Shown: piece by piece, positions 1 to 61,642 of the stretch
How positions within the stretch are numbered: position 1 is the first letter of the stretch
How the letters are laid out: each line of letters starts with the position of its first letter
Assembly (NCBI GenBank): GCA_965207705.1
Contig: OZ242292.1
Location: 1,545,309-1,609,308 of the forward strand
Direction: 5' to 3'
From: Gammaproteobacteria bacterium
GTDB lineage: Bacteria > Pseudomonadota > Gammaproteobacteria > CBDBNL01 > JAAOII01
Length of the DNA stretch: 64,000 nt
Program-made: the position numbers and the translations under genes
Notes under the pieces: generated by a model
Seen by the model: the letters and a program-made list of their open reading frames with translations, nothing else
What the model was told of the DNA's origin: nothing
Database searches by the model: none

Positions 1-17
1 AAAGCACAGAAGAAGGG

Positions 18-1604
18 ATGGATACATCTTTCAAATATTCTGAAAAAACAAAAAAATATGAAACAGAAAAATCTAAAAGAAAAGAAATATTTTTTAATCA
101 AATTATAGCTTCAGATGAAATTGATCGTCTATTCGATGAAAAAGCATTAGTCAACTGGAAAAGGTACATTAAAAATAGTGAAGAAATAGGTGAAGAAACA
201 GTTAAAGAAATAAAGCGCGATGAGAACGGAACAATAAAAGAGAACTTAATAATTAAGGGCAATAATTTATTGGCACTTCATAGTATAAATAAACAATTTG
301 CAGACAAAGTAAAGCTCATTTATATAGATCCACCGTATAACACAGGAAAAGATGGGTTTAAGTATAATGATAAATTTAATCATTCTACTTGGCTAACTTT
401 TATGAAAAACAGGTTGGAAGTAGCAAGGAGGTTATTACGAGATAATGGAGTTATATTTATTTCGGTTGACGATAGAGAGTTTGCATATTTAAAAATACTG
501 TGTGATGAAATTTTTGGACGAGAAAATTTCTTGAATGATGTTATTTGGAATTCTACGAAGTCAGTCACTAATACAGCAATTATTTCGGTTTCACATACTC
601 ATAATTTAGTATATTTCAAAAATAAAGATTACTATATAAAAAATAGAACAGAATTTAGGCTGGTTGAGGATGGTGAAGGTTTTTTTAATCCAGATGATGA
701 TCCTAGGGGTGTTTGGAAAGCTGATCCATTTCAAGTAGGTGGGTGGCGGCCTAATCAACAATATGAAATAAAAAACCCGAATACGGGAATTATTTATACA
801 CCAAACAAAGGTTGTAGCTGGAAAAATGATTATAAAAAATTTCAGGAATTGGTGGCTGACAATAGAATAGTTTTCGGTGCTAGAGGCACTGCTAGTCCGC
901 AAAGGAAAAGATTTTTATTTGAATCGGAAAAAAGAGGAAAGGTTTCAAAAACTATATGGGATGATGCTGGTACAACTACAGATGGAACAAGGCATCTCAA
1001 GCAATTATTTAATGAAATAGTTTTTGATAATCCAAAACCAGAACAATTTATTGAAAAAATTATTGAATTGGCTACTAATGAATATGACATTGTCTTAGAC
1101 TATCATCTAGGAAGTGGTACAACCGCCTCTGTAGCACACAAAATGGGCAGGCAATATATTGGGATAGAGCAAATGGACTATATAAAAAACATTGCTTGTG
1201 AAAGATTAAAAAAGGTTCTAAATGGTGAGCAAGGGGGAATTTCAAAATCAGTGAATTGGCAAGGAGGCGGAGATTTTATTTACCTTGAACTAGCTAAATG
1301 GAACGAACAAGCAAAAGAGAAAATTAAAGCTTGCAAGAGTTTAAAAGAATTAGAGAAAGTTTTTAATTCTCTCTATGAAAAATATTTTCTTAATTATAAT
1401 CTAAAACTTCAAGAGTTTAAAGAAAAAATTATAAAAGAAGATAATTTTAATAAATTATCATTAGAGAAACAGAAGGAAATATTTTCAGAAATATTAGACC
1501 TTAACCAAATGTATGTTCAGAAAACGGAGATGGCTGATCAAAAATTTGAGATTAGCAAGGAGGATCAAGAATTAACTAAAAAATTTTATAATAGCGAAAA
1601 ATAG
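18..1604 (+). CDS. mod: Type III restriction-modification methyltransferase (Mod subunit), N6-adenine class. The ORF is open to the window start, so it may be 5'-truncated.
   Basis: DPPY motif (IYIDPPYNTGKDGFKYNDKF) and an FxGxG-like SAM motif (LDYHLGSGTTA) in beta-class order. It lies immediately upstream of a helicase-like Res gene. The region is AT-rich. Confidence 0.85.
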   Translation: MDTSFKYSEKTKKYETEKSKRKEIFFNQIIASDEIDRLFDEKALVNWKRYIKNSEEIGEETVKEIKRDENGTIKENLIIKGNNLLALHSINKQFADKVKLIYIDPPYNTGKDGFKYNDKFNHSTWLTFMKNRLEVARRLLRDNGVIFISVDDREFAYLKILCDEIFGRENFLNDVIWNSTKSVTNTAIISVSHTHNLVYFKNKDYYIKNRTEFRLVEDGEGFFNPDDDPRGVWKADPFQVGGWRPNQQYEIKNPNTGIIYTPNKGCSWKNDYKKFQELVADNRIVFGARGTASPQRKRFLFESEKRGKVSKTIWDDAGTTTDGTRHLKQLFNEIVFDNPKPEQFIEKIIELATNEYDIVLDYHLGSGTTASVAHKMGRQYIGIEQMDYIKNIACERLKKVLNGEQGGISKSVNWQGGGDFIYLELAKWNEQAKEKIKACKSLKELEKVFNSLYEKYFLNYNLKLQEFKEKIIKEDNFNKLSLEKQKEIFSEILDLNQMYVQKTEMADQKFEISKEDQELTKKFYNSEK

Positions 1605-1630
1605 AATATGTCAAACATCAGTGATTCATA

Positions 1631-4483
1631 ATGCCAGATATTAAATATTTATACGAGATAATTGAGGGTAAAGCACGCAAATTAAGGATTCTACAACCTG
1701 AAATACCAAAATATATTTTAGAGAATTTAAGACATGGTTTTTTTGAGTGGCAACAAGAAGCTTTTGATAATTTTTTACTTTATCAGGAGATAAAAAAAAT
1801 AGAGGATCCCAATTCCTACACTCATCTGATGTTTAATATGGCTACTGGATCTGGTAAGACCATGTTGATGGCAGCTGCTATTCTTTATTATTATGAACAA
1901 GGATATAGACACTTTTTATTTTTTGTGAATCAAAATAATATTTTAGATAAAACTATAAGTAACTTTATCAATAGCACCCACACTAAACATCTTTATACAA
2001 ATCCAATTTTTATTGATAACGCAACTATTTCAATCAAGGAAGTAGAGGTATTTAGTGATAATCCACAAGGTATAGAAATTAAATTTGCTACTATTCAACA
2101 ACTATATTACGATATACATACTGAACAAGAAAATAAGACAACTCTGGATACCCTACATAAAAAAGATATTATCATGCTTGCTGATGAAGCACATCATCTT
2201 AATGCTAACACAAAAAACATTACTATAATAGAAGATTTTTTTGACAAAGAGTTAAAAGGTTCTAAAGCAGAAAAAGAAAAAAAGGGCTGGGAACATACAG
2301 TTATAGAATTTATTCTAAAGAAGAGAAATCCCGGGGATGAAAGGCTCCCCACTCATAATAGGAATGTACTTTTGGAGTTTACTGCTACTATTCCCTCAGA
2401 TTCAGAAGTTATTAAGAAATATAGTGATAAAGTAATTTATAAATTTGAGTTAGTGGAGTTTCTAAAGAAAGGATTTACTAAAGAGATAAATCTGATATCT
2501 TCTACTTTAGATAAAAATGAAAGGATTCTACATGCATTATTATTTAATTGGTATCGGCATAAAATTGCACTTAAGCACGGAGTTATTAATTTTAAACCAG
2601 TAATACTTTTTAGAAGTAAAGAAATTAAAGATTCAAAAATAGATTACGAAGAATTTTTATGCTGGATAGATCGTCTTGAAGAGAAGAACTTTGATTTTCT
2701 TAATAATATTTCTGAAAGAATTATTGAAGATCGTTCAGCAGATTTTTCTAATATAGAAAAATCAGGAACTGAAAAAATTTTAGAATTTATTAGAGGTGAG
2801 AATAAAGGTTATAGTGAAGCAATAAAATGGCTAAAAAGTAATTTTATAGAGAGGAATGTAATTATCACCAATTCAGAAACAAATAAAAAGAAAACAGAAG
2901 TAATAACAGCGGAACAGGAAAAGCTTCTTAACAGTTTAGAGGATAAAGAAAATAATATTAGAGGGATCTTTACGGTTAATAGATTAACGGAAGGATGGGA
3001 TGTATTGAATCTTTTTGATATTGTTCGTCTTCATCAAGAAGAAAATTCTGGAGATAATGACACAGAATTTATTGCAGCAACAACTTCAGAGAAACAACTT
3101 ATAGGTAGAGGAGTAAGATATTTTCCTTTTACATATAATGATAAACCTGAAAGACAAAGAAAATTTGATGGTGAACTTGAACATGAACTGCGAATTTTAG
3201 AAGAGTTACACTATTATACTTATGATAAAAAATCACGGTATATTTCCCAGCTTAAAGAAGCACTAAGGAAAGAGGGCCATATGAGAGAAGATAAAGTTGT
3301 TAGAACTTACGAATTAAAGGAAGGTTTTAAAGAAAGCAAATTTTATATGAATACTAAACTTTTTTATAACAAAAAAATAGCTAATCCAAATAGAAAGAAT
3401 AAAAATTTGGACGATATTCCAAAGGATTTTTTTACCCCCTATAGAGTTAAGGATATAGAAATGGCTGAAGAGATAATGGATTATGATTTTCAAGAAAATT
3501 TACAAAAACTAAAATTAAAAGAAAAAGAGCTAATATCAATTAAAAAGAAATTCAAAGATATTGAAAAGCATATTTTTTTGAAGGCGGTAAACATAAAAGC
3601 TAAAGAAGAAAACTCTTTATTTCAGTTTGAAAAATTAAGTGAAGAATTGAATGTAAAAAGTATTGATGATTTGCAAACAAAGATATTAGCAGATTTTCAA
3701 ATAACGATTGTTGCTCCCCAAGGCACTAAATATGAAAACATTGAAGGGAAGGAAAAACTAAATATTGTGCTTATTATTTTACGGCAGATATTTGGAGAAC
3801 TTAAGAAACAAATTGCTCCTGAGATAGGTAGTGATTTTAGGATGAAGAATTTAAAAGATTTTTTCTCCAAACCTAAAAGTAAACTGATAGCAGAAAACAT
3901 AGAAACTAAAAATCTGGAAAATAAATTAAAGCACGCTGATTGGTATGCTTTAAATGCCTTTACTGGAACAAGTGAAGAAGCGAGCATGATTGAGTTTATA
4001 CAAGAAACTGTAGGCGATTTGAATAAGGAATGTGATGAATTCTATCTGTTAAGAAATGAAGAGGTTTATAAAATATATGACTTCAAGACTGCTAGAGGAT
4101 TTTGCCCTGATTTTATATTGTTTTTAAAAAGTAAAGATAAAGGAGAGTTTAAACATAATAAAACAATAACCCGTTCAGAAAAATATTATCAAATTTTTAT
4201 TGAACCTAAAGGTGAACAATTTATTGGTTATGATAATAGTATAGTGGGAGATAGTATTGATAAGAGAACATTCAAAACGGGTAAAGAAGGATGGAAAGAA
4301 GAATTCTTGGAAGAGATATCCAAAAGATATGGATTTAACGAGATTGTAGAAGCAGAGAATCCTAAATATAGATTAATAGGGTTACCTTTCTATAATACAG
4401 ACACAAAATTTAAAGCTATATTTGGAGAAAAATTTGAGGAGGTAGTTGAAGACCTTTCAACTTTTAATAACAGTCCTCAATAG
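1631..4483 (+). CDS. res: Type III restriction enzyme, Res subunit (SF2 helicase-like endonuclease)
   Basis: Walker A-like motif MATGSGKTMLMA and DEAH-like motif LADEAHH in a 950 aa protein, 27 bp downstream of mod in the same orientation. Confidence 0.85.
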   Translation: MPDIKYLYEIIEGKARKLRILQPEIPKYILENLRHGFFEWQQEAFDNFLLYQEIKKIEDPNSYTHLMFNMATGSGKTMLMAAAILYYYEQGYRHFLFFVNQNNILDKTISNFINSTHTKHLYTNPIFIDNATISIKEVEVFSDNPQGIEIKFATIQQLYYDIHTEQENKTTLDTLHKKDIIMLADEAHHLNANTKNITIIEDFFDKELKGSKAEKEKKGWEHTVIEFILKKRNPGDERLPTHNRNVLLEFTATIPSDSEVIKKYSDKVIYKFELVEFLKKGFTKEINLISSTLDKNERILHALLFNWYRHKIALKHGVINFKPVILFRSKEIKDSKIDYEEFLCWIDRLEEKNFDFLNNISERIIEDRSADFSNIEKSGTEKILEFIRGENKGYSEAIKWLKSNFIERNVIITNSETNKKKTEVITAEQEKLLNSLEDKENNIRGIFTVNRLTEGWDVLNLFDIVRLHQEENSGDNDTEFIAATTSEKQLIGRGVRYFPFTYNDKPERQRKFDGELEHELRILEELHYYTYDKKSRYISQLKEALRKEGHMREDKVVRTYELKEGFKESKFYMNTKLFYNKKIANPNRKNKNLDDIPKDFFTPYRVKDIEMAEEIMDYDFQENLQKLKLKEKELISIKKKFKDIEKHIFLKAVNIKAKEENSLFQFEKLSEELNVKSIDDLQTKILADFQITIVAPQGTKYENIEGKEKLNIVLIILRQIFGELKKQIAPEIGSDFRMKNLKDFFSKPKSKLIAENIETKNLENKLKHADWYALNAFTGTSEEASMIEFIQETVGDLNKECDEFYLLRNEEVYKIYDFKTARGFCPDFILFLKSKDKGEFKHNKTITRSEKYYQIFIEPKGEQFIGYDNSIVGDSIDKRTFKTGKEGWKEEFLEEISKRYGFNEIVEAENPKYRLIGLPFYNTDTKFKAIFGEKFEEVVEDLSTFNNSPQ

Positions 4484-4494
4484 AATACATTAGA

Positions 4495-5439
4495 TTATTT
4501 ATATTCTTGCCAATATTTAGGAAGCACTTTTTTGTATAAAATTATTTTGTTGTAAAGCCAGTCAAAGTATTCTTCATATTTAGACTGATCAAATACATCG
4601 GTAACTTCTTTGTATGTTTTTATATTAGAAGAATCATCGTTTAGTTCCCAATTAACTTCTTGGCCTATTTCTTTTTCAATTTTATCACGAATAGAATATA
4701 GGTATTTAAGGAAGTTTAATTTATCCTTAGAAAAATATAACACACACCCTAATCTTTTCTCTTTAAATAAAATCGTAGCGAACATTACACACCCAGAAAA
4801 ACCTATACCTGAGCTGCAAAAATGTTTTGGTATGGGTGTTGACACTTGAATTTTATCTCCATTTTCGTGAATATAATTTGTAAATTCTTGCCAAAAAAAC
4901 AATTGTTTTTCTTGAGTATTAGTTAATTCATTAGACGTATAACTAGAACTTTTAATTGTTTTTGCCCATTCATTAGGGCTTGCTACTATTTCAAATTTAG
5001 GTGCTGGAGGGCTATTCTCTATCCGGTAAACCTTTAACTTTACTAAGAAAAACCCTATTTCCTGATCTGTGTGTTCGTTTAGCCATTTAACAGCTTGTTG
5101 ATGTTCAGAGTTAAAACCCTTAACTATCCAAATAATAATTTTGGCATCATAGCCAGAAGCATAAGTGATTATCTGTCCAAGATGTCTATGATTTGTATTT
5201 TCAAGTTGATTTTCAATTATTATTTTCCTGTCCCCTATATTATCTTTTGCAAGTATATCTACATTATACTTTCCAACACTTGCTTCAGATTCTATAAGTT
5301 CTATATTTAACCCACCTATTTCTTCTCCTAAAATATCAAGGTTTTCTTGCTTTGCAAGCCATGGTGTAAAATTTATCGCCTCATTTGCCCACACCTCTCG
5401 CAAGTCAACTTCTTTTAATATTGATAGTTTTTCATTCAT
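4495..5439 (-). CDS. DUF4268-like protein with an N-terminal PD-(D/E)xK nuclease-like domain; RM/defence-island accessory.
   Basis: The N-terminus (LREVWANEAINFTPWL...VDILAKD...IIIENQLE...HLGQIITYASGYDAKIIIWI) matches my recollection of the DUF4268/NucS-like nuclease family. It is convergent with and adjacent to the type III RM genes. Confidence 0.6.
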   Translation of the reverse strand: MNEKLSILKEVDLREVWANEAINFTPWLAKQENLDILGEEIGGLNIELIESEASVGKYNVDILAKDNIGDRKIIIENQLENTNHRHLGQIITYASGYDAKIIIWIVKGFNSEHQQAVKWLNEHTDQEIGFFLVKLKVYRIENSPPAPKFEIVASPNEWAKTIKSSSYTSNELTNTQEKQLFFWQEFTNYIHENGDKIQVSTPIPKHFCSSGIGFSGCVMFATILFKEKRLGCVLYFSKDKLNFLKYLYSIRDKIEKEIGQEVNWELNDDSSNIKTYKEVTDVFDQSKYEEYFDWLYNKIILYKKVLPKYWQEYK

Positions 5440-5488
5440 TTTAATTAATCTATTGGTTAGGTCTAATTAGCGTTCCCCCTATCTCCCC

Positions 5489-7291: not shown

Positions 7292-8506
7292 TTATATTGC
7301 GTTGGGGATGATTTTGGCGTCGTCGTAGTTTTGGGATAGGCGACTGCGGCAGAATTCTATCATTTCATCATGGGCTGCCTTTTGCATCTGTAGGGCGGAG
7401 TCGGTAGTTATCATTTTATTTACTAAAAAGGGTGCGGTTGGGTAGTGGCGCGACATTGTTGCTGCCATGCTGCGCGGAAATCTTAGAGTGCCAAGGGTTA
7501 TGGAATGCATTGCTTTGTTGGGGACTGCGGCGGCAAGTTGCTCTATTAGTTCGCTGTAGGAATCTTGCCATTTGTCATGCCATATCAATGGGTCTAAACG
7601 CGCTCCAATCTTCCAGTCGCGTTGCGCCAGTTTTTTCATTGCGAGTAATCTTTTGCTTGGAGTTGGTGTGCCTTTTTCATATTGGCGTGCCACTGCATCT
7701 GGCGCCATGCTAAAAGCCACGATGCAATTGGGAATAGCTGTTTGCTGTAATAGAGTTTTGACTTGCAAGCTTTTGGTGCGTAGTTCTAACCAAGCATTTG
7801 GGTGTTTGGCAAAGAAGGGTAGCGCCTCAGCGACAAACTTACTGGTTGGCTCGTAGGCAAGAGAATCACAATCATAGCCAGAGAAGAAAAAGCACTCTTC
7901 ACTTTTTGCCTTTTCTTGTTCGGCTCCTTTTCCATTCGTCCCGCTTTCATTTGCCTCCTTTCCATTTCCTCCATTTTCTTGCCGTGTCTTATTCTTAATA
8001 ACCCTTTTTTCTCCTCCCTTGGACTGTTGCACTTGTTGCACCTGTTTTTCTATTGCCGTGAAGAAGTCCTCGTAGTTGATAAAAATTACATAGTGCGCCG
8101 ATGAATACATTGCTTGTAAAAAGCAATAGCTGCAATCATACATGCAGTTCAGCATGTGTGAGAAGTAAAAATTATGCTTGCCACCTATACCATAAGGGCT
8201 GTGTTGCACCCAATCTTTTTCTTTGCGGGCAATTATCAGGGCGGGATGATTTTTTTGCAGGCGGAAATTATTACGTTTTGGATTGAATATTTCTCGGTAG
8301 TTATCGCACTCAATAACGCAAGGGTTGTTAAATCTTTTGATGATGGCTGCGGCGCGTGGATGATGGCGCACTGATTTTTCGAGGTATATGGTTTGGCGGG
8401 CGGGCATGGACGGGGGTATGGACGCGGGCATAGGCATATCCTCATGCTCATGTTTATTCTCACGCGACTTAATTTCCAGCTCCTCACTCACTTGCTTTGC
8501 ACCCAT
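7292..8506 (-). CDS. Spore-photoproduct-lyase (SplB)-like radical SAM protein, carrying an internal low-complexity insertion.
   Basis: CMYDCSYCFLQAMYSS fits the Cx3Cx2C radical-SAM cluster in an SplB-like context (compare SplB CMGHCHYCYLQT). The N-terminal IYLE...RF region is SplB-like. There is a G/N/K/E-rich insertion of about 45 aa. The true start may be downstream of 8506. Confidence 0.7.
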   Translation of the reverse strand: MGAKQVSEELEIKSRENKHEHEDMPMPASIPPSMPARQTIYLEKSVRHHPRAAAIIKRFNNPCVIECDNYREIFNPKRNNFRLQKNHPALIIARKEKDWVQHSPYGIGGKHNFYFSHMLNCMYDCSYCFLQAMYSSAHYVIFINYEDFFTAIEKQVQQVQQSKGGEKRVIKNKTRQENGGNGKEANESGTNGKGAEQEKAKSEECFFFSGYDCDSLAYEPTSKFVAEALPFFAKHPNAWLELRTKSLQVKTLLQQTAIPNCIVAFSMAPDAVARQYEKGTPTPSKRLLAMKKLAQRDWKIGARLDPLIWHDKWQDSYSELIEQLAAAVPNKAMHSITLGTLRFPRSMAATMSRHYPTAPFLVNKMITTDSALQMQKAAHDEMIEFCRSRLSQNYDDAKIIPNAI

Positions 8507-8516
8507 TTATTTTGAC

Positions 8517-8591
8517 CCATCTGCTTTTCATCCATCTGCTTTTCATCCATCTGCTTTTCATCCATTTACTTTTCATCCATTTACTTTTTGT
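8517..8591. repeat. 15-bp tandem repeat x5 (CCATCTGCTTTTCAT x3, CCATTTACTTTTCAT x2)
   Basis: Direct reading. The array spans the stop codon of the nucleosidase-like gene and lies immediately upstream of the radical-SAM start. Confidence 0.9.
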
Positions 8592-9637: not shown

Positions 9638-10544
9638 CTTGCTTATGTAATTGTTGAATTTGCTCTTGATAATAATTTAGATGTTGTTGTTTGCCGCGTT
9701 TACGCGCTCCAATGGATAATATTTCCAGCCGTTTTTGCAACGCATTTTTTGTTGCCAGCCGATAATCAGCAGTAAGTTCGGATTGTAGCAGCATCTTTTT
9801 CAAGGCATAACAGCGAAACCTGTCCATGCCCCAATATTTGCGCGACAGCTGGTCGGCATGCCCGCCCCTTTTCAGCGTCAATTTTTTAGGGACAAACAGC
9901 ACATTTTCATAAGCGCAAATTCTCAGCCACATATCATAATCTTCACACACTGGCATCTTTTCATCAAATAATCCATATTTGTCAAACACCTCGCGTTGCA
10001 TAAGGACAGTAGAGGGCGATATGCAACACAGTTCCAGGCATTTTTCATAAATTCTGCCACCACTCTTGCGATGTTTTAGATGTGGATTAACATGCTCGCC
10101 ATGGCGTCGCCATTTTTCGTCTGTATGACATATCAAAGGATTCATTAAGGGATTCATTAAAGAATTCATTCTTTGTTGCGTCTCATGCTTGATAAGTTCG
10201 GCTTGCTTCTCCATCTTGCGTGGCAGCCATTCATCATCGTCGTCCAGAAAAGCCAACCAAGGTTCACAAGAGTGCTTAATTCCTGTATTGCGTGAGGCGC
10301 TAATACCACGTCCTTCAGATGGCATAGTGGTTATGTTGATGGGCTTGCCACTGTCGGGATGCTTGGGAATTGGTGCGCCCACTCCCTTCCCCTCACCATA
10401 AGGGTAATCATAAACTACGAGAATCTCTGTTGGTGGCAGGGTTTGTTGCATCACAGAAGTTAAAGCCATTTTCAAAAAATTTGCGCGTCCTTGATTGCTC
10501 TCTTCTTTAGATGATACGGTGGTTATTATCGCACTATATAGCAT
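9630..10544 (-). CDS. Family 2 glycosyltransferase
   Basis: GT-A fold signatures (ILVVYDY ... LAFLDDDDEW DxD motif). Contains the repeat insertion MNSLMNPLMNPL. Confidence 0.7.
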   Translation of the reverse strand: MLYSAIITTVSSKEESNQGRANFLKMALTSVMQQTLPPTEILVVYDYPYGEGKGVGAPIPKHPDSGKPINITTMPSEGRGISASRNTGIKHSCEPWLAFLDDDDEWLPRKMEKQAELIKHETQQRMNSLMNPLMNPLICHTDEKWRRHGEHVNPHLKHRKSGGRIYEKCLELCCISPSTVLMQREVFDKYGLFDEKMPVCEDYDMWLRICAYENVLFVPKKLTLKRGGHADQLSRKYWGMDRFRCYALKKMLLQSELTADYRLATKNALQKRLEILSIGARKRGKQQHLNYYQEQIQQLHKQDA

Positions 10545-10834: not shown

Positions 10835-12352
10835 ATGGCAAGGCAATCAATTAAACTATCAGCGAGTTCCAAATTGCAGGGTGACCAGGCGGCTATTATC
10901 ATCCTTAAGCAAGAAGGCGAACAACATAACGAATTAAGCAAGAAGCAAAACAAAACCGCTAAGCAAAGCAAAAGTGCCGCCACCAGTGCTTGCCCGACTT
11001 GGTTGTATAACCAACTGAGCACAGCGGCGTGCAAGTCGCTTGATGAACTTGCAAGCAGCAACAATAGCAGATTTGGTGAAGTGTGGCATCTTTCAGACAA
11101 CTTAACAGTTATATCTTGCGGCGAGAAGCCGCTAACCGAGCTAGCCCTTAGCAAATTGGCTATTCCTCTCAGAACTGCCCTGCGTCAAACTCATGCGAAT
11201 AAGGCGCAAATATTCACAGATTATTCTTCGTCCGTGTTGGACGCTATTTGTTTGGCAGCCGCAGCTTCCAGCTACACTTATGATGACTTTAAATCCAAGA
11301 AGAGCACATCACCTGTCCCAAGCAATCTAACTATTTTACATCCACAACCCGAGCTAATCAAACCAAGATTACAGCAGTTACAGGGGATTGCTCAGGGTAT
11401 AGTGCTGGCAAAAGACCTAGCCAATTCTCCTCCGAACCACTGCACTCCGCCGCATCTGGCAGACCAAGGCAGGCAGTTGGCGCATCAGTATAAAAAAATC
11501 TCATGCAAGGTGCTTGGTGAAAAGCAACTGCAGCAGCTTAACATGAATGCCTATCTGGCGGTTACTCAAGGGAGCTCCTACCCTCCTCAGCTGGTAATTA
11601 TGGAATACAAGGGGACTAAAGCATCAACCCCGCCTGTGGTTTTGGTTGGCAAGGGGATGACTTTTGATACTGGTGGCATCAGCATCAAGCCCTCGGGCAA
11701 GATGGATGAAATGAAGTATGACATGTGCGGCGCCGCTTCGGTGTTTGGCACAATGAAAGCGCTGGCAGAATTGGGGTTGCCAATTAATGTTGTAGGCATG
11801 GCAGTGGGTGCTGAGAATTCGGTGGACGCCAAGTCCTATCGTCCTGGCGACATACTCTCAACCATGTCTGGCAAGTCGGTGGAAGTCCTCAATACAGATG
11901 CGGAAGGGCGTTTGGTGTTGTGCGACACCCTAACCTATGTAGCTAAAAAATATAGCCCACGTTGTGTTATAGACATAGCCACATTAACAGGGGCTTGTGT
12001 CATAGCCCTCGGACATCTCAGAAGCGGGATGTTTGCCAACGATGATGCGTTAGCGCGCCAAATAGAAAATGCCGCCAATCTAACCCGTGATTTGGTTTGG
12101 CGTTTGCCTATGGATAAGGCATATATGGAGGATATGAAAAGTAACTTTGCCGACATCGCCAATGTGGGCAATCGTTCTGCAGGCACTATCACCGCCGCAG
12201 GTTTTTTGGCAGAGTTTGCTCAAGCATACCCCTGGGTTCATCTTGATATAGCCGGCACTGCTTGGCTTGAGGGAGCAAGAAAAGGAGCTACTGGACGACC
12301 TGTTCCTTTGTTAACTCAATTTCTGATTTCGGCTTGCAATGAAAAAATCTGA
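10835..12352 (+). CDS. pepA: Leucyl aminopeptidase (cytosol aminopeptidase)
   Basis: NTDAEGRL signature, VGKGMTFDTGGISIKP and MKYDMCGAA, which are M17 peptidase motifs. Length 505 aa. Confidence 0.9.
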   Translation: MARQSIKLSASSKLQGDQAAIIILKQEGEQHNELSKKQNKTAKQSKSAATSACPTWLYNQLSTAACKSLDELASSNNSRFGEVWHLSDNLTVISCGEKPLTELALSKLAIPLRTALRQTHANKAQIFTDYSSSVLDAICLAAAASSYTYDDFKSKKSTSPVPSNLTILHPQPELIKPRLQQLQGIAQGIVLAKDLANSPPNHCTPPHLADQGRQLAHQYKKISCKVLGEKQLQQLNMNAYLAVTQGSSYPPQLVIMEYKGTKASTPPVVLVGKGMTFDTGGISIKPSGKMDEMKYDMCGAASVFGTMKALAELGLPINVVGMAVGAENSVDAKSYRPGDILSTMSGKSVEVLNTDAEGRLVLCDTLTYVAKKYSPRCVIDIATLTGACVIALGHLRSGMFANDDALARQIENAANLTRDLVWRLPMDKAYMEDMKSNFADIANVGNRSAGTITAAGFLAEFAQAYPWVHLDIAGTAWLEGARKGATGRPVPLLTQFLISACNEKI

Positions 12353-14414
12353 TTTATCACTTGCTCATCCAATAAGGATGTTGGCGGCAGATGCGGTCCA
12401 ACGTGCCTCATCGGGACATCCTGGCATGCCAATGGGCATGGCTGATATCGCCACAGTTTTATGGCGTGAGTTTCTGGCGCATAATCCCACCGACCCTAAC
12501 TGGCATAACCGCGACAGGTTCATTCTTTCCAACGGGCATGGTTCAATGCTGCAATATGCTTTACTTCATCTTAGTGGTTATGACCTCAGTATGGAAGAGA
12601 TTAAAAACTTTCGCCAGATGAATTCACAAACTCCTGGCCATCCCGAATTAGAAACAGTAGGGGTGGAAACCACCACAGGTCCTTTAGGGCATGGTTTGGC
12701 AAACGCGGTTGGCATGGCTCTTGCCGAACGTAATCTTGCTGCAGAGTTCAATCTCCCAGAACTTAATATAGTATCCCACTTCACTTATGTATTTGCCGGC
12801 GATGGTTGTCTTATGGAAGGTCTATCCCATGAGGCGTGCTCTTTGGCAGGGACTCAACGGCTCAACAAGCTAATTTGCTTTTTTGATGATAACGGAATTT
12901 CCATAGACGGCGAGGTTAGTGGCTGGTGTAGTGATGATGTGGCAAAAAGATTTGATGCTTATAACTGGAATGTCCTGGGTCCCATAGACGGACATGACCA
13001 TGAGCAAATTAGGAAGGCAATTACCTCTGCTCAACAAAGTGATAAGCCATCATTAATTATCTGTAAGACGCATATAGGTTATGGTTCGCCGAATAAAGCG
13101 GACAAGGCGGCAGCGCATGGTGCGCCCTTAGGCGACGAAGAAATAGCTCTTATGCGTAGTAACCTTGATTGGCAGCACGAGCCATTTGTGATAACGGATG
13201 AAATATATCAGGCATGGAATATGCGCGACAAGGGCAAAAAGGCGCAGCAACAATGGGAAGATTTGTATGCCAAGTATAGTTCCGCTCACCCCACTAAAGC
13301 GAAAGAATATACAAGAAGATTAAGCGGGCAAATGCCGCATGATTTTACTAACAAGGCGCAGGACTTTATTATTAGCCAGCATAAATCAGCTGCCTCAGTG
13401 GCTAGCCGTCAGTCGTCCTTACAAGCCATTAATAACTTGCTCCCTTCATTGCCTGAGTTGCTCGGCGGTTCGGCAGATCTTAGCGGCTCCAACTGCACGC
13501 TCAGTGATTCATCTGTTGCTATAAGTGATAATGGCAAACCCGGCAACTATATCTATTATGGAGTGCGTGAGTTAGCGATGAGCTCAATAATGAATGGTAT
13601 TGCCTTACATGGCGGATATATTCCTTATGGCGGCACCTTTTTAGTATTTTTAGATTACTCGCGTAGCGCGGTGCGTTTGGCGGCTTTGATGCGCCAGAAG
13701 GTCATTTTTATTTTTAGCCATGATTCAATCGGCGTGGGCGAGGATGGACCTACCCATCAACCAATAGAACATCTAACAATGCTACGTGCCACTCCAGGAA
13801 TTGATGTGTGGCGTCCAGCGGATACTGTTGAGTGCGCGGTTGCTTGGACAGAATCCCTGCAAAAATCATCTCCCAGTACTTTAATACTATCGCGTCAGAA
13901 TCTTGAATTTCAGTCGCGTGATGAATCACAACTTGAAGATATTGCTAAAGGCGGCTATGTTTTAGTTGCCGGGGGGAATAATCAGGAGGGGAATAATCAA
14001 GGAGGCAACAATAAGGGCTACAATCAAGGCAACAATAATGATGAGCCAGCAGCCATAGTTATTGCCACTGGTTCCGAATTAGGCGCAGCCCGTCAGGCAG
14101 TGGAACAACATAATAAAGAGGACCTAACAAAAGGAGGCAACAAGCAAGTAAGGTTGGTATCCATGCCTTGTTGTGAAGTATTTGATGCCCAGTCGCCTGA
14201 ATATCGCGATAAGGTTTTACCGCCAAAGATTGTCAAACGTTTGGCAATAGAAGCGGCAATGCCAGATTACTGGCATCGTTACATTGGGTTGCAAGGCGAG
14301 ATTATAGGGATTAACTCCTTTGGTAAATCAGCGCCTGCTAGTGAATTATTTGAGCATTTCGGGCTCACCGCCAAACATATCTACAACAAGATTACTGCGT
14401 TTATTCACCAATAG
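12339..14414 (+). CDS. tkt: Transketolase with in-frame N/G/Q-rich insertions
   Basis: Full-length collinearity with TktA (SGHPGMPMGMADIA, GDGCLMEG, HDSIGVGEDGPTHQP), plus an inserted GGNNQEGNNQGGNNKGYNQGNNNDE segment. Confidence 0.9.
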   Translation: MKKSDLSLAHPIRMLAADAVQRASSGHPGMPMGMADIATVLWREFLAHNPTDPNWHNRDRFILSNGHGSMLQYALLHLSGYDLSMEEIKNFRQMNSQTPGHPELETVGVETTTGPLGHGLANAVGMALAERNLAAEFNLPELNIVSHFTYVFAGDGCLMEGLSHEACSLAGTQRLNKLICFFDDNGISIDGEVSGWCSDDVAKRFDAYNWNVLGPIDGHDHEQIRKAITSAQQSDKPSLIICKTHIGYGSPNKADKAAAHGAPLGDEEIALMRSNLDWQHEPFVITDEIYQAWNMRDKGKKAQQQWEDLYAKYSSAHPTKAKEYTRRLSGQMPHDFTNKAQDFIISQHKSAASVASRQSSLQAINNLLPSLPELLGGSADLSGSNCTLSDSSVAISDNGKPGNYIYYGVRELAMSSIMNGIALHGGYIPYGGTFLVFLDYSRSAVRLAALMRQKVIFIFSHDSIGVGEDGPTHQPIEHLTMLRATPGIDVWRPADTVECAVAWTESLQKSSPSTLILSRQNLEFQSRDESQLEDIAKGGYVLVAGGNNQEGNNQGGNNKGYNQGNNNDEPAAIVIATGSELGAARQAVEQHNKEDLTKGGNKQVRLVSMPCCEVFDAQSPEYRDKVLPPKIVKRLAIEAAMPDYWHRYIGLQGEIIGINSFGKSAPASELFEHFGLTAKHIYNKITAFIHQ

Positions 14415-14415
14415 A

Positions 14416-14510
14416 GAGAAGCACATATAAGGGGGGTAATAATATAAGGGGGGTAATAATAGAAGAGGGGATAATAATAGAAGAGGGGATAATAAAGCCA
14501 TCCCCCCTCC
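14416..14510. repeat. Intergenic tandem repeats (ATAAGGGGGGTAATAAT x2; AGAAGAGGGGATAATAAT x2)
   Basis: Direct reading between the convergent tkt and trmB genes. Ends with a GGGG...CCCCCC inverted segment. Confidence 0.85.
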
Positions 14511-19750: not shown

Positions 19751-21725
19751 ATTGCCCAGCTCTAAACTGCAAGGACTGACGCAGTCGGTGGTGCAAATAT
19801 TTAAGGCGCCTATAACCACCCGGCTAAAACGCGCCTTCCATGGCGGGGTTAAACCGCCAGAACATAAAGAAGAAAGCATACGTTTGCCTATAGGAGATAT
19901 TATTCCCGCTGATGAGTTCTATATTCCTATTACTAAAGCAGGAGCGCAGATGGGAAATAAAGTAGCGGTAGGTGATAGGGTCTTGGCAGGACAGTTTATT
20001 AATGAGCCAATTACGGCAGGCGAAAAGCACAGGATGGCGCCAGTATCAGGAGTCATAACGGGGACTACTAATATATTAATCAGCGGAAGAGTGCCGTATT
20101 ATTCCGAGTGTTTGGTGTTACGCAGCGATAACAAGCATGAGAGAGTTACTCCACCTGAGAATAAAAGCTATCAAGATTGCACTCGGCAGGAGCTGATTGA
20201 ACGATTGAAAAGGGCGGCAATATATGGCATGGGCGGTGGCGGATTTCCTGCTTTGCGCAAGATGGGAGCGCAGAAGATCAAGTATTTAATAGTAAATGCT
20301 GTAGAGTGTGAACCATATATAACAGTTGACCATGCTTTGCTTGACTCTTATAGCGATGAGGTTGTTGCAGCTATACCCATAGCTCATAAAATACTCGGCT
20401 GCAATCCGCAGACAATAATAGCGCTTGAAAATAACATGTCCTCTGCCATAAAGGCAATTAGTGAGGCAATTAGCGAGGCAATAAAAAATAAAGGAACGGG
20501 AGAAGCGGAAACGGAAGCGGAAGGAACGGAAAAAACCCGACTTGCCAGTCCAATAGCTCCCAATGCAAAAATCTCCAATACAGAACTTCCCAATATAAAA
20601 CTTAAGGTGCTACCAACAATTTATCCTATGGGAAGCGAGAAGCAACTTATTTTGGCATTGCTTGGCACGGAAATACCAAGCGGAAAAATAGCAGTTCAGC
20701 AAGGGATTTTATGTTTGAATGTTGCAACCTTGCGTGCTATATATCGGGCTGTGGTGCACAATGAACCTTTATTGCAAAGAATTATTACTGTGGCAGGTAA
20801 TGGAGTTCCTCAACCTCGTAATCATTGGGTGCGTTTAGGAACCTCGATTAATCAAATCTTATTGCAAACTGGAGTTAAAGATTTATCTTCGGTTAATGTG
20901 TTTATGGGCGGGGCAATGATGAACTATAAAATTGATGATTTGAATATGCCAGTTTCCTCCTCAACAAATTGCCTATTGGTGTTTAAGAAGTCACCTAATA
21001 TGCTTGCCAATAACAATGTTAATGGTGGGAGTAATGGTGGGAGTAATGGTGAGGATAATGTTGGGGATAATGGATATGAGAACGGGCACGGGCATGAAGA
21101 TGAGCAGAGGCATAAACAGGACGCGCCGCTGACGCAAAGCGCCTTATGGCGTAGTGCTGATACCCCTCTCTTTGATAAACAATGGACTCAGCATCGCGAG
21201 TGCATAAAATGTGGCTTGTGCGAGCAGGTCTGTCCAGCCCGTTTGTTGCCACAACAACTCTACCGATATATCAAAGCGGATAAGATACCGTTGGCAGTGG
21301 ATGAGGGATTATTTGCTTGTATTGAATGCGCTGCTTGCGATTATGTATGCCCCAGCAATATACCTTTGAGTGATTATTATATATTTGCTAAGGAGTCAAG
21401 TAAAACCGAACAACTCAATAAATATAAAGCGGATAGAGCAAGGAATAGGTTTAATGACCACAAGCTAAGATTGGATAAACAAAAAGAGGAACTTGCGGCA
21501 AGAAGGGCAGAGCGAATTGCCAAGATGAAAAAGACAAATGATAATTCCCCAGCAGAGGATATTTCTGTTAAGCAACGCAAGATTGCCAGCTTAAAAATAC
21601 AAATCAGTAAGACGTTGCAGGCAATAGATAAATGGCAGGCAACAGGTGAAGATAGCCGTGCCGCAACTTTGCAGAATACCCGTGATAAATTACAGCAAGA
21701 ATTAAATAACCTAACGTCCAAATAA
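19737..21725 (+). CDS. rnfC: Electron transport complex subunit RnfC/RsxC with a G/N-rich insertion and a long charged C-terminal extension
   Basis: [15 protein letters not shown]-terminus, [12 protein letters not shown]-binding motif, and [12 protein letters not shown] / [12 protein letters not shown] clusters. Confidence 0.85.
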
Positions 21726-28355: not shown

Positions 28356-29255
28356 ATGCATCAGAATAATGGCGCGTTGGTTATCCTGCTCGCTGCTGGC
28401 AGTAGCCGCCGCTATAGTAATCATGCGGGGAATAATAAACATAAAAACGTGCATGAAAATGAATTGCCCAACTCGGAAGAATTGAAACAGCTTGAACTAT
28501 TAAACGGCAAATCGGTTATTAGCTACTCGCTTGAAAAGTTTTGTAATTGCCGTTTGGTGGATGAAGTTATAGTGATGATTCCGCCTGGGGAGCAAGCAAG
28601 ATTTCAAAATGTTATAAATGATTTAGCTGACAATATAAAGGGCAACATAAAAGGCAAGATAAAGGGGAACATAAATAAGAAGATCCGCTGTATAAAGGAG
28701 GGCGGAAAAAACAGGTTTGATTCAACGCATCTGGCAATCGCAGAACTGGCAAACGAATCAGGAAGTAGAAGTGTTCTAATCCATGATGCAGCGCGCCCAT
28801 TAGTATCTACACAATTAGTGGAAAAATGTATAGCTGCTTTGCAAACGCATCCAGCAGTAGCCGCAGCCCTTCCTGTAACCGATACACTTGGGCTACTAAC
28901 ACCTTTAAGCGAAGACATAAGCAAAGATGCGAGTACAGCAACTCCTCCTGCGCAAACAGGACATAATCGGGAGTACAAGATTAGTAAGATTGCCACCCGT
29001 TCAGATTACTGTTTGTTGCAAACACCACAAGGATTTCAGCTCCAACTATTGCGCGATAGTTTTCAAAACGCCGCGGATGAAGGTGGAGATACCAGCCGCT
29101 GGACAGACGACTGTTCGGTTGTGTTAGCTCATAATCCTTCTTTGTCCATTCATAAAATTGAGGGCGATGTTTATAACATTAAGCTTACTCACAAACAAGA
29201 CAAACAGATACTGGAATCAATTTTGCATAAACAACATGACAGAAGCAGCAGTTAA
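28356..29255 (+). CDS. ispD: 2-C-methyl-D-erythritol 4-phosphate cytidylyltransferase-like (IspD family), with insertions in the N-terminal nucleotide-binding loop and the repeat NIKGNIKGKIKGNINKK
   Basis: LAAGSSRR, VLIHDAARP, QTPQGF and the C-terminal TDDCSVV...NIKLT align with IspD motifs. About 60 residues longer than canonical IspD. Confidence 0.65.
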   Translation: MHQNNGALVILLAAGSSRRYSNHAGNNKHKNVHENELPNSEELKQLELLNGKSVISYSLEKFCNCRLVDEVIVMIPPGEQARFQNVINDLADNIKGNIKGKIKGNINKKIRCIKEGGKNRFDSTHLAIAELANESGSRSVLIHDAARPLVSTQLVEKCIAALQTHPAVAAALPVTDTLGLLTPLSEDISKDASTATPPAQTGHNREYKISKIATRSDYCLLQTPQGFQLQLLRDSFQNAADEGGDTSRWTDDCSVVLAHNPSLSIHKIEGDVYNIKLTHKQDKQILESILHKQHDRSSS

Positions 29256-29991: not shown

Positions 29992-30750
29992 CTATTGTTC
30001 AACTATTATGTCGGTTCCTGGTGGAGGGACAAGATTAAATTGCGAGCGTGTATTGCGCCAATTCTTTTTAATATTATCAAACTTCATCACAATTTTTTGG
30101 TTAAGTTCGGTATCCCAGTTAATCTCACGCGGTATATTGTTTCTAAAATAAACTGATATTCCTTGCGAGTATTGAGCGTCACTTAAAAAGAATATAGGAG
30201 CATTTGTATCTGGCTGGCTTATATCCATAGCATCTAAAACAGCTTTATTTCCTCCAAGGAAAAAGAAAGGTGGCAGGTTATTTTTATCAAGCGGACGGAT
30301 AATTAACTGCCTAAGTTCTTCATCATAAATCAAGATATTGGTGCTATTGCTTATTATGGTCTGAGCAAAAGGTGGGTCAACTTCCCATCTTAATAGCAAA
30401 GGGCGAGTCATCCTAAACTTTCCGCTTAGGATGCGTAAAGTGTTACCATTGGAATCATATTCATGCTGGGTAAAATCACCGCGCAGGGATTTTATTGAAG
30501 ATAAAATATCTTCAAGATTATTCCTTGCCTGATTATCCGCCGCGAGCGCCAAGGGGGGAATAACAAGGAGGGGAATAACAAGGGGGGGAATAACCAGGGG
30601 GGTAATAAAGAGAGAGAAAATAACGAGCGAGGAAAGAACGGAGAAAACAAAACCGAAAACCACTAACAGGGTTTCAGTCGCTTTATGAATAGCGCATTTG
30701 GCTCGTTGCGTTCCCTCCGCCCATAAGGAGGCGAGTTGACTATCCAGCAT
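29992..30750 (-). CDS. LolA-like outer-membrane lipoprotein carrier protein with an unusually long, internally repeated hydrophobic N-terminus
   Basis: LRGDFTQ..., LRWEVDPP... and LIIRPLD resemble the LolA fold. The N-terminus contains ITPLVIPPLVIPLLVIPPLALA before an AXA site. Confidence 0.5.
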   Translation of the reverse strand: MLDSQLASLWAEGTQRAKCAIHKATETLLVVFGFVFSVLSSLVIFSLFITPLVIPPLVIPLLVIPPLALAADNQARNNLEDILSSIKSLRGDFTQHEYDSNGNTLRILSGKFRMTRPLLLRWEVDPPFAQTIISNSTNILIYDEELRQLIIRPLDKNNLPPFFFLGGNKAVLDAMDISQPDTNAPIFFLSDAQYSQGISVYFRNNIPREINWDTELNQKIVMKFDNIKKNWRNTRSQFNLVPPPGTDIIVEQ

Positions 30751-31998: not shown

Positions 31999-32277
31999 TT
32001 ATTTATCTTCTGCTGGGGGGACATAGCCCGCTGGCTTGTCAAAATCTTTGTTATTCAAAAATTTATCCATCTGCTCCGTCAAATAGTCGCGGTCTTCTTT
32101 GTTTACCATACTTAGATGTTTCTCATTGATTAGCATAGTTTGGTGTTTCAACCATTCCACCCATGCCTGATGAGATACATTCTCCAATAGATACTCTCCT
32201 TTTTCATTGGGAAAAGGAGCGCTTTCCATAGCGGGTAAGTTCAAATGATATTTTATACAGAATACTTCTTTTGTCAT
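31999..32277 (-). CDS. yggX: Fe(2+)-trafficking protein YggX
   Basis: MTKEVFC...ENVSHQAWVEWLKHQTMLINEKHL matches the YggX family. The ORF-track N-terminal extension (32278-32472) runs into REP elements and is rejected. Confidence 0.75.
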   Translation of the reverse strand: MTKEVFCIKYHLNLPAMESAPFPNEKGEYLLENVSHQAWVEWLKHQTMLINEKHLSMVNKEDRDYLTEQMDKFLNNKDFDKPAGYVPPAEDK

Positions 32278-32300
32278 TTGAATAATATAACACAACATAA

Positions 32301-32578
32301 GGTATCTTGTATAAATTCTTGCGACACAATTCTGTATGGTGTTTGACATTACGATACCCATCTGGTATGCTGTATAAATTCTTGCGATGATGGTCTGTAG
32401 GGGCGGAGCTGCGCTCCGCCCGCCAGATGCTTGATACTTGCGATAAACCTTCGGCATGCTCGCGTCGTACATATCTATGGTCTATGACATTACGACGCAG
32501 GTCTGTAGGGGCGGAGCTGCGCTCCGCCCGCAAGATGCTTGATACTTGCGATAAACCTTCGGAATGCTCGCGTCGCAA
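32301..32578 (+). repeat. REP-like composite palindromic elements (tandem dimer, two GGGGCGGAGCTGCGCTCCGCCC cores)
   Basis: Direct reading. Two units, each with CTTGCGA(C/T)G...GTCTGTAGGGGCGGAGCTGCGCTCCGCCCGC.AGATGCTTGATACTTGCGATAAACCTTCGG.ATGCTCGCGTCG. Confidence 0.85.
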
Positions 32579-35272: not shown

Positions 35273-35274
35273 CT

Positions 35275-35581
35275 ATGATGTATAAATCCTTGCAATACAA
35301 TTCTGTATGGTGCATAAATCCTTGCAACGTAGATCTGTATGGCGTTCAAACCTACGACGCAGGTCTGTAGGGGCGGAGCTGCGCTCCGCCCGCAAAATGT
35401 CTAATTCTTGCGACGTACCATCGGCATGCTCGCGACGTACATAATCATGCTGCATAAATTATTGCGACGCAATTCTGTATGGTGCATAAATTCTCGCAAC
35501 GCAGGTCTGTAGGGGCGGAGCCATGCTCCGCCCGCAAGATGTCTAATACTTGCAACACACCATCGGCATGCTCGCGACACC
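35275..35581 (+). repeat. REP-like composite elements (cluster with two palindromic cores, one variant having a CCAT centre)
   Basis: GTCTGTAGGGGCGGAGCTGCGCTCCGCCCGC at about 35364 and GTCTGTAGGGGCGGAGCCATGCTCCGCCCGC at about 35505, each flanked by CTGTATGGTGCATAAAT.CTTGC units. Confidence 0.85.
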
Positions 35582-35670: not shown

Positions 35671-36615
35671 ATGGAACATTTAGATTTTGAAAAACCTATA
35701 GTGGAGGTTCAGGAAAAGCTGGACGGCTTGCGGATGGCAAGCAATGATGAAAGCATAACCTCCGAAATCATTAGATTAGAAGAAAGGTTGGAGTCAGTTA
35801 CCCAAAAGGTATTCTCCACACTCAGCGACTGGCAGATTGTCCAAATAGCCCGTCACCCATCACGCCCATATTTCACCGATTATCTTGAACACGTCTTCAG
35901 CGACCACGAAGAACTGCATGGCGACCGCCAGTATTCCGATGACGCTTCACTGGTAGCGGCTTTAGCGCGCCTTGATGGCAAGCCAGTTATGGTGATAGGG
36001 CAACAAAAAGGGCGTGAAGTACCCGAAAAGGTCAAGCGCAATTTTGGCATGCCTAAGCCCGAGGGCTATCGCAAGGCATTACGATTAATGAAAATGGCAG
36101 AAAAGTTCAAGCTTCCCATCATAACTTTTATTGATACTCCCGGCGCCTATCCTGGCATAGGGGCGGAAGAAAGAGGGCAAAGTGAAGCCATAGCCCGCAA
36201 TCTTATGGTTATGGCGCGTCTTAAGACCCCAATTATAAGCTTGGTTATAGGCGAAGGTGGTTCGGGAGGAGCCCTTGCCATAGGGGTTTGCGATAGATTA
36301 CTAATGCTGCAGTATTCAATTTACTCGGTAATATCACCTGAGGGCTGCGCTTCCATACTTTGGCGTGATGCCAAATATGCGGATGTCGCCGCTAAAGCCA
36401 TGTCTATTACCGCAGATAAACTGAAAAAAATATCTCTGGTAGATCAGGTTATACAAGAACCATCTGGCGGAGCGCATCGTCACCCCGAAGATGTTTATAC
36501 CAAAGTCCGTACTCAATTACTATCTTCGTTAAAAGAACTTAACAGCGTCAGCAATCCTGCCGAACTCGTCCGTCAAAGATATGACAAGTGGATGGGCTTC
36601 GGTAATTTTGAATAA
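35671..36615 (+). CDS. accA: Acetyl-CoA carboxylase carboxyltransferase subunit alpha
   Basis: LDFEKPI...ARHPSRPY...[10 protein letters not shown]...[10 protein letters not shown] is collinear with AccA. Confidence 0.9.
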
Positions 36616-61530: not shown

Positions 61531-61582
61531 CTATGAAAAATTATGAGAAATTGTGTTATAATTCCCACACATAAAACCTAAA

Positions 61583-61642
61583 GTGGGGAAACACAAAATA
61601 GGGGAAAACACAAAGGTGGGGAAACAAAAGAAGGGGGAAAAT
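61583..61642. repeat. Approximately 15-bp tandem repeat x4 (GTGGGGAAACACAAA-like) in the 5' region of the TRAP receptor gene
   Basis: AAGTGGGGAAACACAAAATAGGGGAAAACACAAAGGTGGGGAAACAAAAGAAGGGGGAAAATATG. Confidence 0.8.

Follow-up and report, generated by a model that had tools for sequence, protein, structure and literature searches.

The 64-kb window analysed here (~43% GC) carries gammaproteobacterial housekeeping genes at close packing, and many of the conserved enzymes encoded in it, among them the transketolase Tkt, contain short repetitive inserts that keep the reading frame. We conclude that these inserts are very probably coding minisatellites, also known as variable number tandem repeats (VNTRs), which arose by local tandem duplication, most likely through replication slippage, were filtered by selection and occur genome-wide in a species-level complex of bacteria with genomes of ~1.8-2.2 Mb. 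The mechanism is known; its density in bacterial housekeeping enzymes is unusual. The genes of the window include pepA, tkt, trmB, hldE, rnfBC, cobB, maeB, mrcA, gpsA, ispD, lolA and ispA, as well as priA, accA, miaA, hisDC, rsmG, parAB, mpl, sdh and sucAB. These were compared with three sister genomes, S64 (ERZ25069764), S62 (ERZ25069762) and S59 (ERZ25069759), which share 90-96% nucleotide identity with the window, and with three outgroup loci of the same gene order, L089, L090 and L091. The outgroup assemblies are ERZ25070259, ERZ25070261 and ERZ922811. The nearest outgroup found is L089, a contig from a sponge metagenome whose Tkt is 69% identical. Tandem arrays were called with Tandem Repeats Finder (TRF), repeat densities count non-overlapping arrays, and 1.42 Mb of gammaproteobacterial loci served as controls for these densities.

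The insert of Tkt (Table 1) falls opposite a gap in the alignments with the solved transketolases of Pseudomonas aeruginosa (4xeu) and Escherichia coli (2r5n). Of the other gammaproteobacterial loci compared, 80 from genomes and 80 from metagenomes, none has it, the matches spanning 1932-2004 nt against 2073 nt here, and it is also missing from the nearest outgroups, with Tkt identities of up to 69%; the best relative reached 57% identity when one genome was scanned for each species and 56% in the metagenome scan. Odd short cluster members (a 53-aa protein of Fusarium and others) are artefacts of clustering. In 12 sister transketolases (93-99% identity, assemblies of 1.3-2.2 Mb) the length ranges from 671 to 697 aa, and the alignment shows that it varies solely in the insert, some alleles lacking the repeat (EEG-NSSEP) and others having up to about six GNNQ[E/G] units. 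At the nucleotide level the insertions and deletions (indels) correspond to whole units, and S64 has the single seed GAGGAGGGAAATAGC. The AlphaFold (AF2) model of Tkt has a predicted local distance difference test score (pLDDT) of 89 and a predicted template modelling score (pTM) of 0.91, and it superimposes on the E. coli enzyme with a TM-score of 0.98 and a root mean square deviation of 1.6 Å. The sole segment of the model with a pLDDT below 50 comprises residues 548-567 and is flanked by the strands 540-543 and 572-576. This predicted structure supports the insert being a flexible loop in an otherwise E. coli-like fold.

Variation in length is found across the window. Internal indels occur in 21 of the 34 orthologue sets formed by the window and the three sisters, nearly all of them within short repeats, and blastn alignments between the window and the sisters are interrupted at repeat sites, including those of tkt, rnfC, lolA, hisC and rsmG. 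TrmB, RnfB, CobB, MaeB, PBP1a, GpsA, IspA, AccA, ParA, ParB, SdhA and SdhB are invariant in length among strains. At all the listed sites the arrays are head-to-tail, with units of 9-36 bp in 2-8 copies and 68-100% matches. The length changes by whole units in Tkt (15/12 bp) and in HisC, RnfC, IspD, the GT2 glycosyltransferase, HldE and SucA (12 bp), and less clearly so in the long decayed inserts; nucleotide alignments show the arrays extending from one seed that the shortest allele already has.

The reading frame is preserved throughout. Every one of the 98 pairwise coding indels is a multiple of three, in contrast to 11 of the 53 intergenic ones, and the period of the array is a multiple of three in 23 of 26 coding arrays versus 6 of 15 non-coding arrays. 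None of the coding indels breaks the frame, and the open reading frames (ORFs) are intact in all four genomes. The ratio of nonsynonymous to synonymous substitution rates (dN/dS) is 0.09-0.13 at a dS of 0.18-0.26 (34-36 genes); a value of about 0.1 indicates that these are functional genes and not pseudogenes. Among the residues in indel columns G, N and S are enriched ~2-fold, and hydrophobic residues make up 22% against a background of 40%. A hydrophobic LVIPP repeat nevertheless occurs in the signal-peptide region of LolA, which indicates that the filter depends on the site. The inserts of Tkt, the SPL-like protein and the GT2 glycosyltransferase are absent from all three outgroups, and the outgroup comparisons taken together show the inserts of the window to be derived and recent. 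Ancestral inserts, which would be expected to be conserved in unrelated lineages, were ruled out by the outgroup alignments, the inserts being absent from the outgroups and from unrelated lineages alike.

Tandem arrays are far denser in the window (6.4 per 10 kb, 4.8% of the bases) than in the controls (1.6 per 10 kb, 0.69%). Per 10 kb of coding DNA there are 4.5 arrays in the window, ~5 times the 0.8 of the controls, 3.5 in the sisters and none in L089 and L090 together; per 10 kb of non-coding DNA the values are 33 for the window, 28 for the sisters, 2.5 for the controls and 5.9 for L089 and L090, so that the non-coding density amounts to 11-13 times that of the controls and ~5 times that of the nearest outgroups. 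Low-complexity segments of at least 18 aa reach 6.5 per 10,000 aa versus 2.0-2.7 in the controls, and they are G/S/N/D-rich, not L/A-rich. At an amino acid identity of 0.92-0.94, ingroup comparisons of 16-17 genes show 15-20 indels, which amount to 125-208 gap residues. Control pairs of equal identity have fewer, with 1 indel (2 aa) among the 22 genes of a Pantoea pair and 6 indels (39 aa) among the 14 genes of a Dyella pair. Given that non-coding arrays escape selection at the protein level, their excess points to a lineage-specific rise of tandem duplication, beyond relaxed selection alone; a rise in short tandem repeats was indeed found that has no counterpart in L089 and L090, with L091 intermediate.

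Table 1. Transketolase gene, in-frame inserts and the array downstream of tkt, with positions in the window
Feature	Position	Strand	Evidence or remark
Transketolase gene, 691 aa, carrying the insert below	12339-14414	+	E=1e-258 to solved transketolases; AF2 model
Tkt in-frame repeat insert GGNNQEGNNQGGNNKGYNQGNNND, 24 aa, G/N/Q (aa 545-568), 15/12-bp units	13971-14042	+	TRF arrays 13973-14038
Intergenic 17/18-bp array GGGGRTAATAATAGAAGA x ~4, just past the tkt stop	14425-14495		TRF; absent or different in sisters
SPL-like radical-SAM protein, G/N/K/E-rich inserts of 15 and 21 aa	7892-8020	-	Pfam SPL; not in S64, S62 or any of the three outgroups
PNP-like protein, G/N/D-rich insert of 42 aa	9059-9184	-	Weak PNP_UDP_1 match
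GT2 glycosyltransferase repeat MNSLMNPLMNPL, 12-bp unit x3	10131-10166	-	TRF 10135-10170; not in outgroups
PepA N-terminal KQSKTA repeat region	10943-10990	+	Copy number different in each of four genomes
RnfC insert cluster 1	20445-20603	+	TRF 20452-20482, 20502-20523, 20558-20603; strain-variable
RnfC insert 2, NGGS 12-bp units and G/N/E/H-rich tail	21012-21143	+	TRF 21020-21073
IspD, ~18 extra residues between AAGSSRR and KQ motif	28416-28478	+	Alignment to L091 IspD
IspD NIKG repeat NIKGNIKGKIKGNINKK, 12-bp unit x3.8	28632-28682	+	TRF
LolA N-terminal (signal-peptide region) hydrophobic LVIPP repeat, 15-bp unit x3.7 and decayed tail	30553-30687	-	TRF
MiaA GGRG/GGHG repeat, 9/18-bp units	37209-37286	+	TRF 37210-37282
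MiaA KSQD/KHQD repeat	37488-37547	+	Absent from 3crm; units gained or lost among strains
HisC (SPSI)n, 12-bp unit TCTATATCCCCT x5.7, near-perfect	39971-40045	+	TRF 39980-40047, 94% matches
RsmG NQAGxx repeat, 18-bp unit x5.8, decayed	44146-44268	+	TRF
Mpl variable region, TGNTEN unit differs among strains	47025-47147	+	Sister comparison
SucA NGQL unit, 1-3 copies among strains	51604-51627	+	Sister comparison
SucB inter-domain linker low-complexity region, 12/15-bp arrays	54599-54793	+	TRF 54695-54733, 54773-54803; several strain-variable blocks

A previous sequence-only reading of the window had listed in-frame inserts in several conserved enzymes, and every one of these was found, at or within ~10 nt of where it had been placed and, for the NIKG repeat of ispD, exactly there. 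That well-studied homologues lack them is also correct: a gap lies opposite in the solved Tkt, RnfC, MiaA, HisC and RsmG. In IspD, the N-terminus of which gave only noise against the PDB, the inserts could be compared only with the outgroup L091, and this has neither. The additional ispD insert proposed at the AAGxxxR loop corresponds to 18 residues without counterpart in L091, located between AAGxxxR and the KQ motif; the length of this stretch varies by 4-6 aa among strains, and the match to Pfam IspD picks up again at aa 41. The NIKG repeat is one or two units shorter in S64 and S62. In hisC the repeat had been described as (SPSIS)x5 encoded by five copies of a 15-bp unit, which has to be corrected to the SPSI unit given by TRF, and of the inserts that had been called perfectly tandem only this one is nearly so, matches in the other arrays being 68-94%. 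S64 and S62 lack 24 aa of it and S59 is 8 aa shorter, the seed being ATTTCTCCGTCTACC; residues 88-112 of HisC, which contain the repeat, have no counterpart in 3euc. The GT2 glycosyltransferase, the nucleosidase (here the PNP-like protein), the radical-SAM protein and Mpl had been named as affected too, and inserts are present in all of them; Mpl is a weaker case because the region is also variable in the solved Psychrobacter homologue. S62 carries one unit more of the GT2 repeat, and the PNP-like insert is absent in S64, L090 and L091 and mostly absent in S62.

In RnfC, the solved protein has nothing opposite residues 247-283 and 419-485 of the window protein. The length of insert 2 ranges from 0 to 44 aa among strains, and both this insert and cluster 1 are absent from L089 and L090. 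The RnfC of L091 (locus 12461-14317, minus strand) carries a G/N/S/K-rich insert of its own, GNGKRKGRSSSKSNNGGGGG, at the site of insert 2; this independent insert indicates that the site, which lies between the flavin-binding and the ferredoxin domains, is a permissive hot spot. The sites in SucB, HldE and the C-terminus of RnfC are ordinary linker positions. S64 and S62 lack 36 aa of LolA and keep a single seed, GGAGGGAATAACAAG; their RsmG is 18 aa shorter in the repeat, and residues 148-191 of RsmG are absent from E. coli GidB (1jsx). The GGRG/GGHG repeat of MiaA varies by 3-9 aa among strains and makes the protein ~21 aa longer than that of P. aeruginosa.

Some further observations concern these same genes. 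At 8493-8588 a 15-bp unit (minus strand AAATGGATGAAAAGC) present in ~5 copies duplicates the junction at which the stop codon of the PNP-like gene meets the SPL-like start codon. As a result, a short upstream reading frame encoding (MDEKQ)n overlaps the start of SPL. The pepA gene of S64 (L081 8716-8877) carries an in-frame, non-repetitive insertion of 162 bp (54 aa) that is unique to S64, and no second copy of it was found in the available DNA. The listed ORF of MiaA starts at 36693, without the P-loop, and GPTGSGKS is encoded upstream at 36645-36668; the in-frame stop at 36609-36611 is not followed by any ATG, GTG or TTG, so that translation probably starts at the ATA or ATT at 36612-36617, which overlaps with the stop of accA. 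This upstream frame (region 36609-36695) is also open in the sister genomes.

The mechanism that we propose would begin with a pre-existing local seed that is tandemly duplicated, most likely by replication slippage or by misalignment between short direct repeats, giving arrays that would later gain or lose whole units. The process would act genome-wide across the species-level complex and would be more visible still in intergenic DNA. Within genes, purifying selection would keep only units that are multiples of three bp, whose residues are flexible and hydrophilic (G, N, S, K, Q), or hydrophobic at a signal peptide as in LolA, and that fall at permissive loops or domain linkers, and the enzymes would remain functional with disordered loops of strain-dependent length. 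A slipped-strand origin was already suggested in the sequence-only reading, and it fits the whole-unit indels that start from a local seed and the arrays that range from perfect to decayed. The prediction made there that loop lengths differ between strains agrees with the 12 alleles of Tkt and with the 21 variable orthologue sets. Placement of the inserts in surface loops is backed by the predicted model for Tkt, and for Tkt only. The phenomenon had been called lineage-wide, which holds for the species-level complex and does not extend to the wider clade, L089 and L090 being almost free of arrays; and where tolerance or a mechanism had been offered as options, the evidence exceeds tolerance, the ~12-fold non-coding density pointing to a raised mutational input.

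Tolerance alone would mean that the mutation rate is ordinary and that a small effective population, as in a host-restricted bacterium, fixes slightly harmful in-frame insertions by drift. The small genomes (1.8-2.2 Mb), the sponge-metagenome origin of the nearest outgroup and a dN/dS that exceeds that of Pantoea controls (0.04-0.08) agree with it. We nonetheless consider it unlikely, since dN/dS is low all the same, L089 and L090 have no coding arrays despite the same gene order, and the non-coding repeats, barely touched by protein-level selection, show the largest excess over controls and nearest outgroups. It is quite improbable that the disordered G/N/S-rich loops were selected for themselves (enzyme tuning, condensates or host interaction), with copy number under diversifying selection. 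The inserts do persist in essential enzymes under purifying selection, their composition is not random, and L091 was independently hit at the same RnfC site; however, sisters carry zero-copy alleles in otherwise intact Tkt, HisC, LolA and RnfC genes, the non-coding arrays are equally dynamic and denser, the host proteins are cytoplasmic and functionally unrelated, and a neutral tolerance filter would yield the same bias in composition. An artefact of assembly or sequencing, or the decay of pseudogenes, can be practically dismissed. Tandem repeats are prone to mis-assembly, but the arrays are shorter than 110 bp and recur at the same sites, with diverged flanks and in varying copy number, in assemblies that were made independently, come from different samples and name their contigs in different styles; moreover, the ORFs are all intact, every coding indel is a multiple of three and dN/dS is about 0.1.

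The arrays at 13971-13996 (Tkt), 14432-14495 (downstream of tkt) and 30553-30608 (LolA) share the plus-strand motif GGGGGRWAATAAY (GGGGRWAATAA), despite the location of lolA on the opposite strand, and the single-copy seeds in S64 are alike (GGAGGGAAATAGC, GGAGGGAATAACA). The motif may represent a preferred slippage context or a coincidence (rough chance estimate ~0.01). It would also fit if the inserts were copies of a small in-frame selfish element, similar to the Rickettsia palindromic elements (RPEs), an explanation to which we give very little credit: an all-against-all blastn of 22 insert regions shows nothing shared beyond this short motif of the Tkt, LolA and intergenic arrays, the matches of the motif scan lie almost wholly within the three arrays, the sister genomes already have the seed of each array in place, the inserts consist of direct repeats over 12-130 bp, and the 162-bp insert of the S64 pepA is unique in the available data. 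A mobile-element origin was accordingly rejected, as neither the motif scans, nor the comparison of the inserts, nor the search with the S64 pepA insert revealed a dispersed family.

Several points weigh against the interpretation of the inserts as slippage-derived minisatellites spread over the whole genome. The sample consists of one 64-kb window, ~55 kb from each of two sisters and ~43 kb from the third. Slippage as the molecular event is deduced from its products, and some long inserts, those of the SPL-like protein (36 aa), the PNP-like protein (42 aa) and the S64 PepA (54 aa), are repetitive only in a cryptic way. The entropy-based fraction of plain low complexity is just 1.4 times that of the controls, so the case rests on the tandem arrays, the long segments and the indels between strains. 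The repeat density of L091 is intermediate, and because of this, and because the Dyella pair reaches a third of the ingroup indel count, the ingroup contrast is quantitative and not absolute. Finally, the G-run/AATAA motif in three arrays hints at an unexplained sequence preference.

We infer that the slippage rate has risen specifically in this lineage, for instance through a changed replication or repair function or a small population size. No replication or repair gene able to explain the rise, such as dnaQ or mutS/L, was found in the readable DNA (~64 kb of the window and ~55 kb per sister), in which priA and xseB are present. A bolder version of the slippage hypothesis, which we regard as possible and hold only tentatively, is that heritable hyper-slippage (e.g. 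an altered replisome, exonuclease or mismatch repair) is remodelling the whole proteome with in-frame minisatellites, and would have given this complex, of a sponge-associated type, the bacterial counterpart of the low-complexity proteome of Plasmodium. The G-run/AATAA seeds common to several arrays (GGAGGGAAT...) could be a mark of the triggering sequence context.

The loci employed for multiple-locus VNTR analysis (MLVA) are VNTRs generated by replication slippage, usually in a few surface or hypothetical genes. The inserts of the window resemble bacterial coding VNTRs or minisatellites in their head-to-tail units, in copy numbers that differ between close strains with conserved flanks, in periods that are multiples of three within ORFs and in changes by whole units; in contrast, they occupy many conserved cytoplasmic enzymes (Tkt, HisC, IspD, MiaA, RsmG, RnfC), at ~5 times the usual coding density. 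RPEs, reportedly described by Ogata and co-workers in 2000, are said to add peptide segments to conserved bacterial proteins, where they are tolerated at surface positions. These are dispersed copies of one palindromic family of 100-150 bp, whereas the inserts are local tandem duplications without a common consensus, and for lack of a dispersed consensus among the 22 insert regions they are not RPE-like. Contingency loci also undergo slippage at intragenic repeats, but there it causes on/off frameshifts; here all length changes are multiples of three, and the inserts are not contingency loci because no coding indel shifts the frame.

The closest parallels among bacteria are Ehrlichia ruminantium and Portiera. 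In E. ruminantium, a host-associated bacterium with a small genome, tandem repeats lengthen and shorten from strain to strain (PMC10710844, where Collins 2005 and Frutos 2006 are cited). There the process is described as one that targets non-coding regions and inflates intergenic DNA (PMC10710844); here, in contrast, genes are packed at normal density and a large part of the variation seen lies in frame within enzymes. In the Portiera lineage of Bemisia tabaci a burst of short tandem repeats and of indels in repeat contexts, which a sister lineage lacks, coincides with the loss of dnaQ, mutL, ruvC and other genes (PMC3673631). This is likewise a lineage-specific burst of repeats and can serve as a model of how a lineage comes by such a tendency; it differs in that it mostly involves 7-bp intergenic microsatellites in a genome of 0.36 Mb, and the likeness to our case lies in the repeats. 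The closest functional analogue is found in the housekeeping proteins of Plasmodium falciparum, where slippage-prone, polymorphic, N/G/S/K-rich low-complexity inserts occupy non-core positions of conserved enzymes (PMC3140889, PMC5389722). Plasmodium is a eukaryote with ~80% AT and mostly homopolymer-like asparagine runs, whereas the window belongs to a bacterium of 43% GC with units of 9-36 bp.

Other parts of the window also deserve mention. Positions 1-5440 form a low-GC island (29-32%), in which a Type III restriction-modification pair (mod 18-1604, res 1631-4483) is accompanied by a DUF4268 gene; the N-terminus of mod contains repeats with periods that are multiples of three at 42-87 and 173-212, and the restriction-modification genes have no match in the S64 stretch and are diverged (82-87% nucleotide identity) in S62 and S59. 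The priA-accA spacer (35274-35560) contains two ~160-bp units, each with a GC-rich hairpin (GGGGCGGAGC...GCTCCGCCC) and with the look of a repetitive extragenic palindromic (REP) sequence or a miniature inverted-repeat transposable element (MITE), and in S62 the spacer differs by more than 1 kb. At 61580-61641 a 16-bp repeat, whose period is not a multiple of three, is present in 3.8 copies at the 5' end of a DctP-family ORF (61583-62797) with a Pfam match from aa 81; it may lie within a leader or promoter and could affect expression. The regions 41008-43500 (FN3/GLUG) and 55716-58373 (FN3/chitinase-N-like) encode large proteins with domain repeats of 306, 267 and 87 bp, the former without a match in S62 and S59 and present as two tandem copies in S64, the latter only 59-68% identical between strains, and both are probably fast-evolving surface proteins. 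The ORF of the Fe2+-trafficking protein YggX (31999-32472) encodes 157 aa with the Pfam domain at residues 66-153, against 99-109 aa for the sister genes, and its N-terminal extension is probably an artefact of ORF calling.

For annotation, the inserts imply that methods based on length or on hidden Markov models can fail at these sites, as several sister orthologues have no precomputed Pfam match. The arrays can be used as high-resolution markers to tell apart strains of a bacterium that is uncultured and probably host-associated. If the phenomenon is genome-wide, it would be a natural experiment on how much disordered sequence conserved enzymes absorb and where they place it, and it would show a change in repeat stability reshaping a bacterial proteome over a short evolutionary time (dS ~0.2). 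A defect in repair or replication, if found to be the cause, would connect gene loss with the architecture of the proteome, as has been proposed for Portiera.

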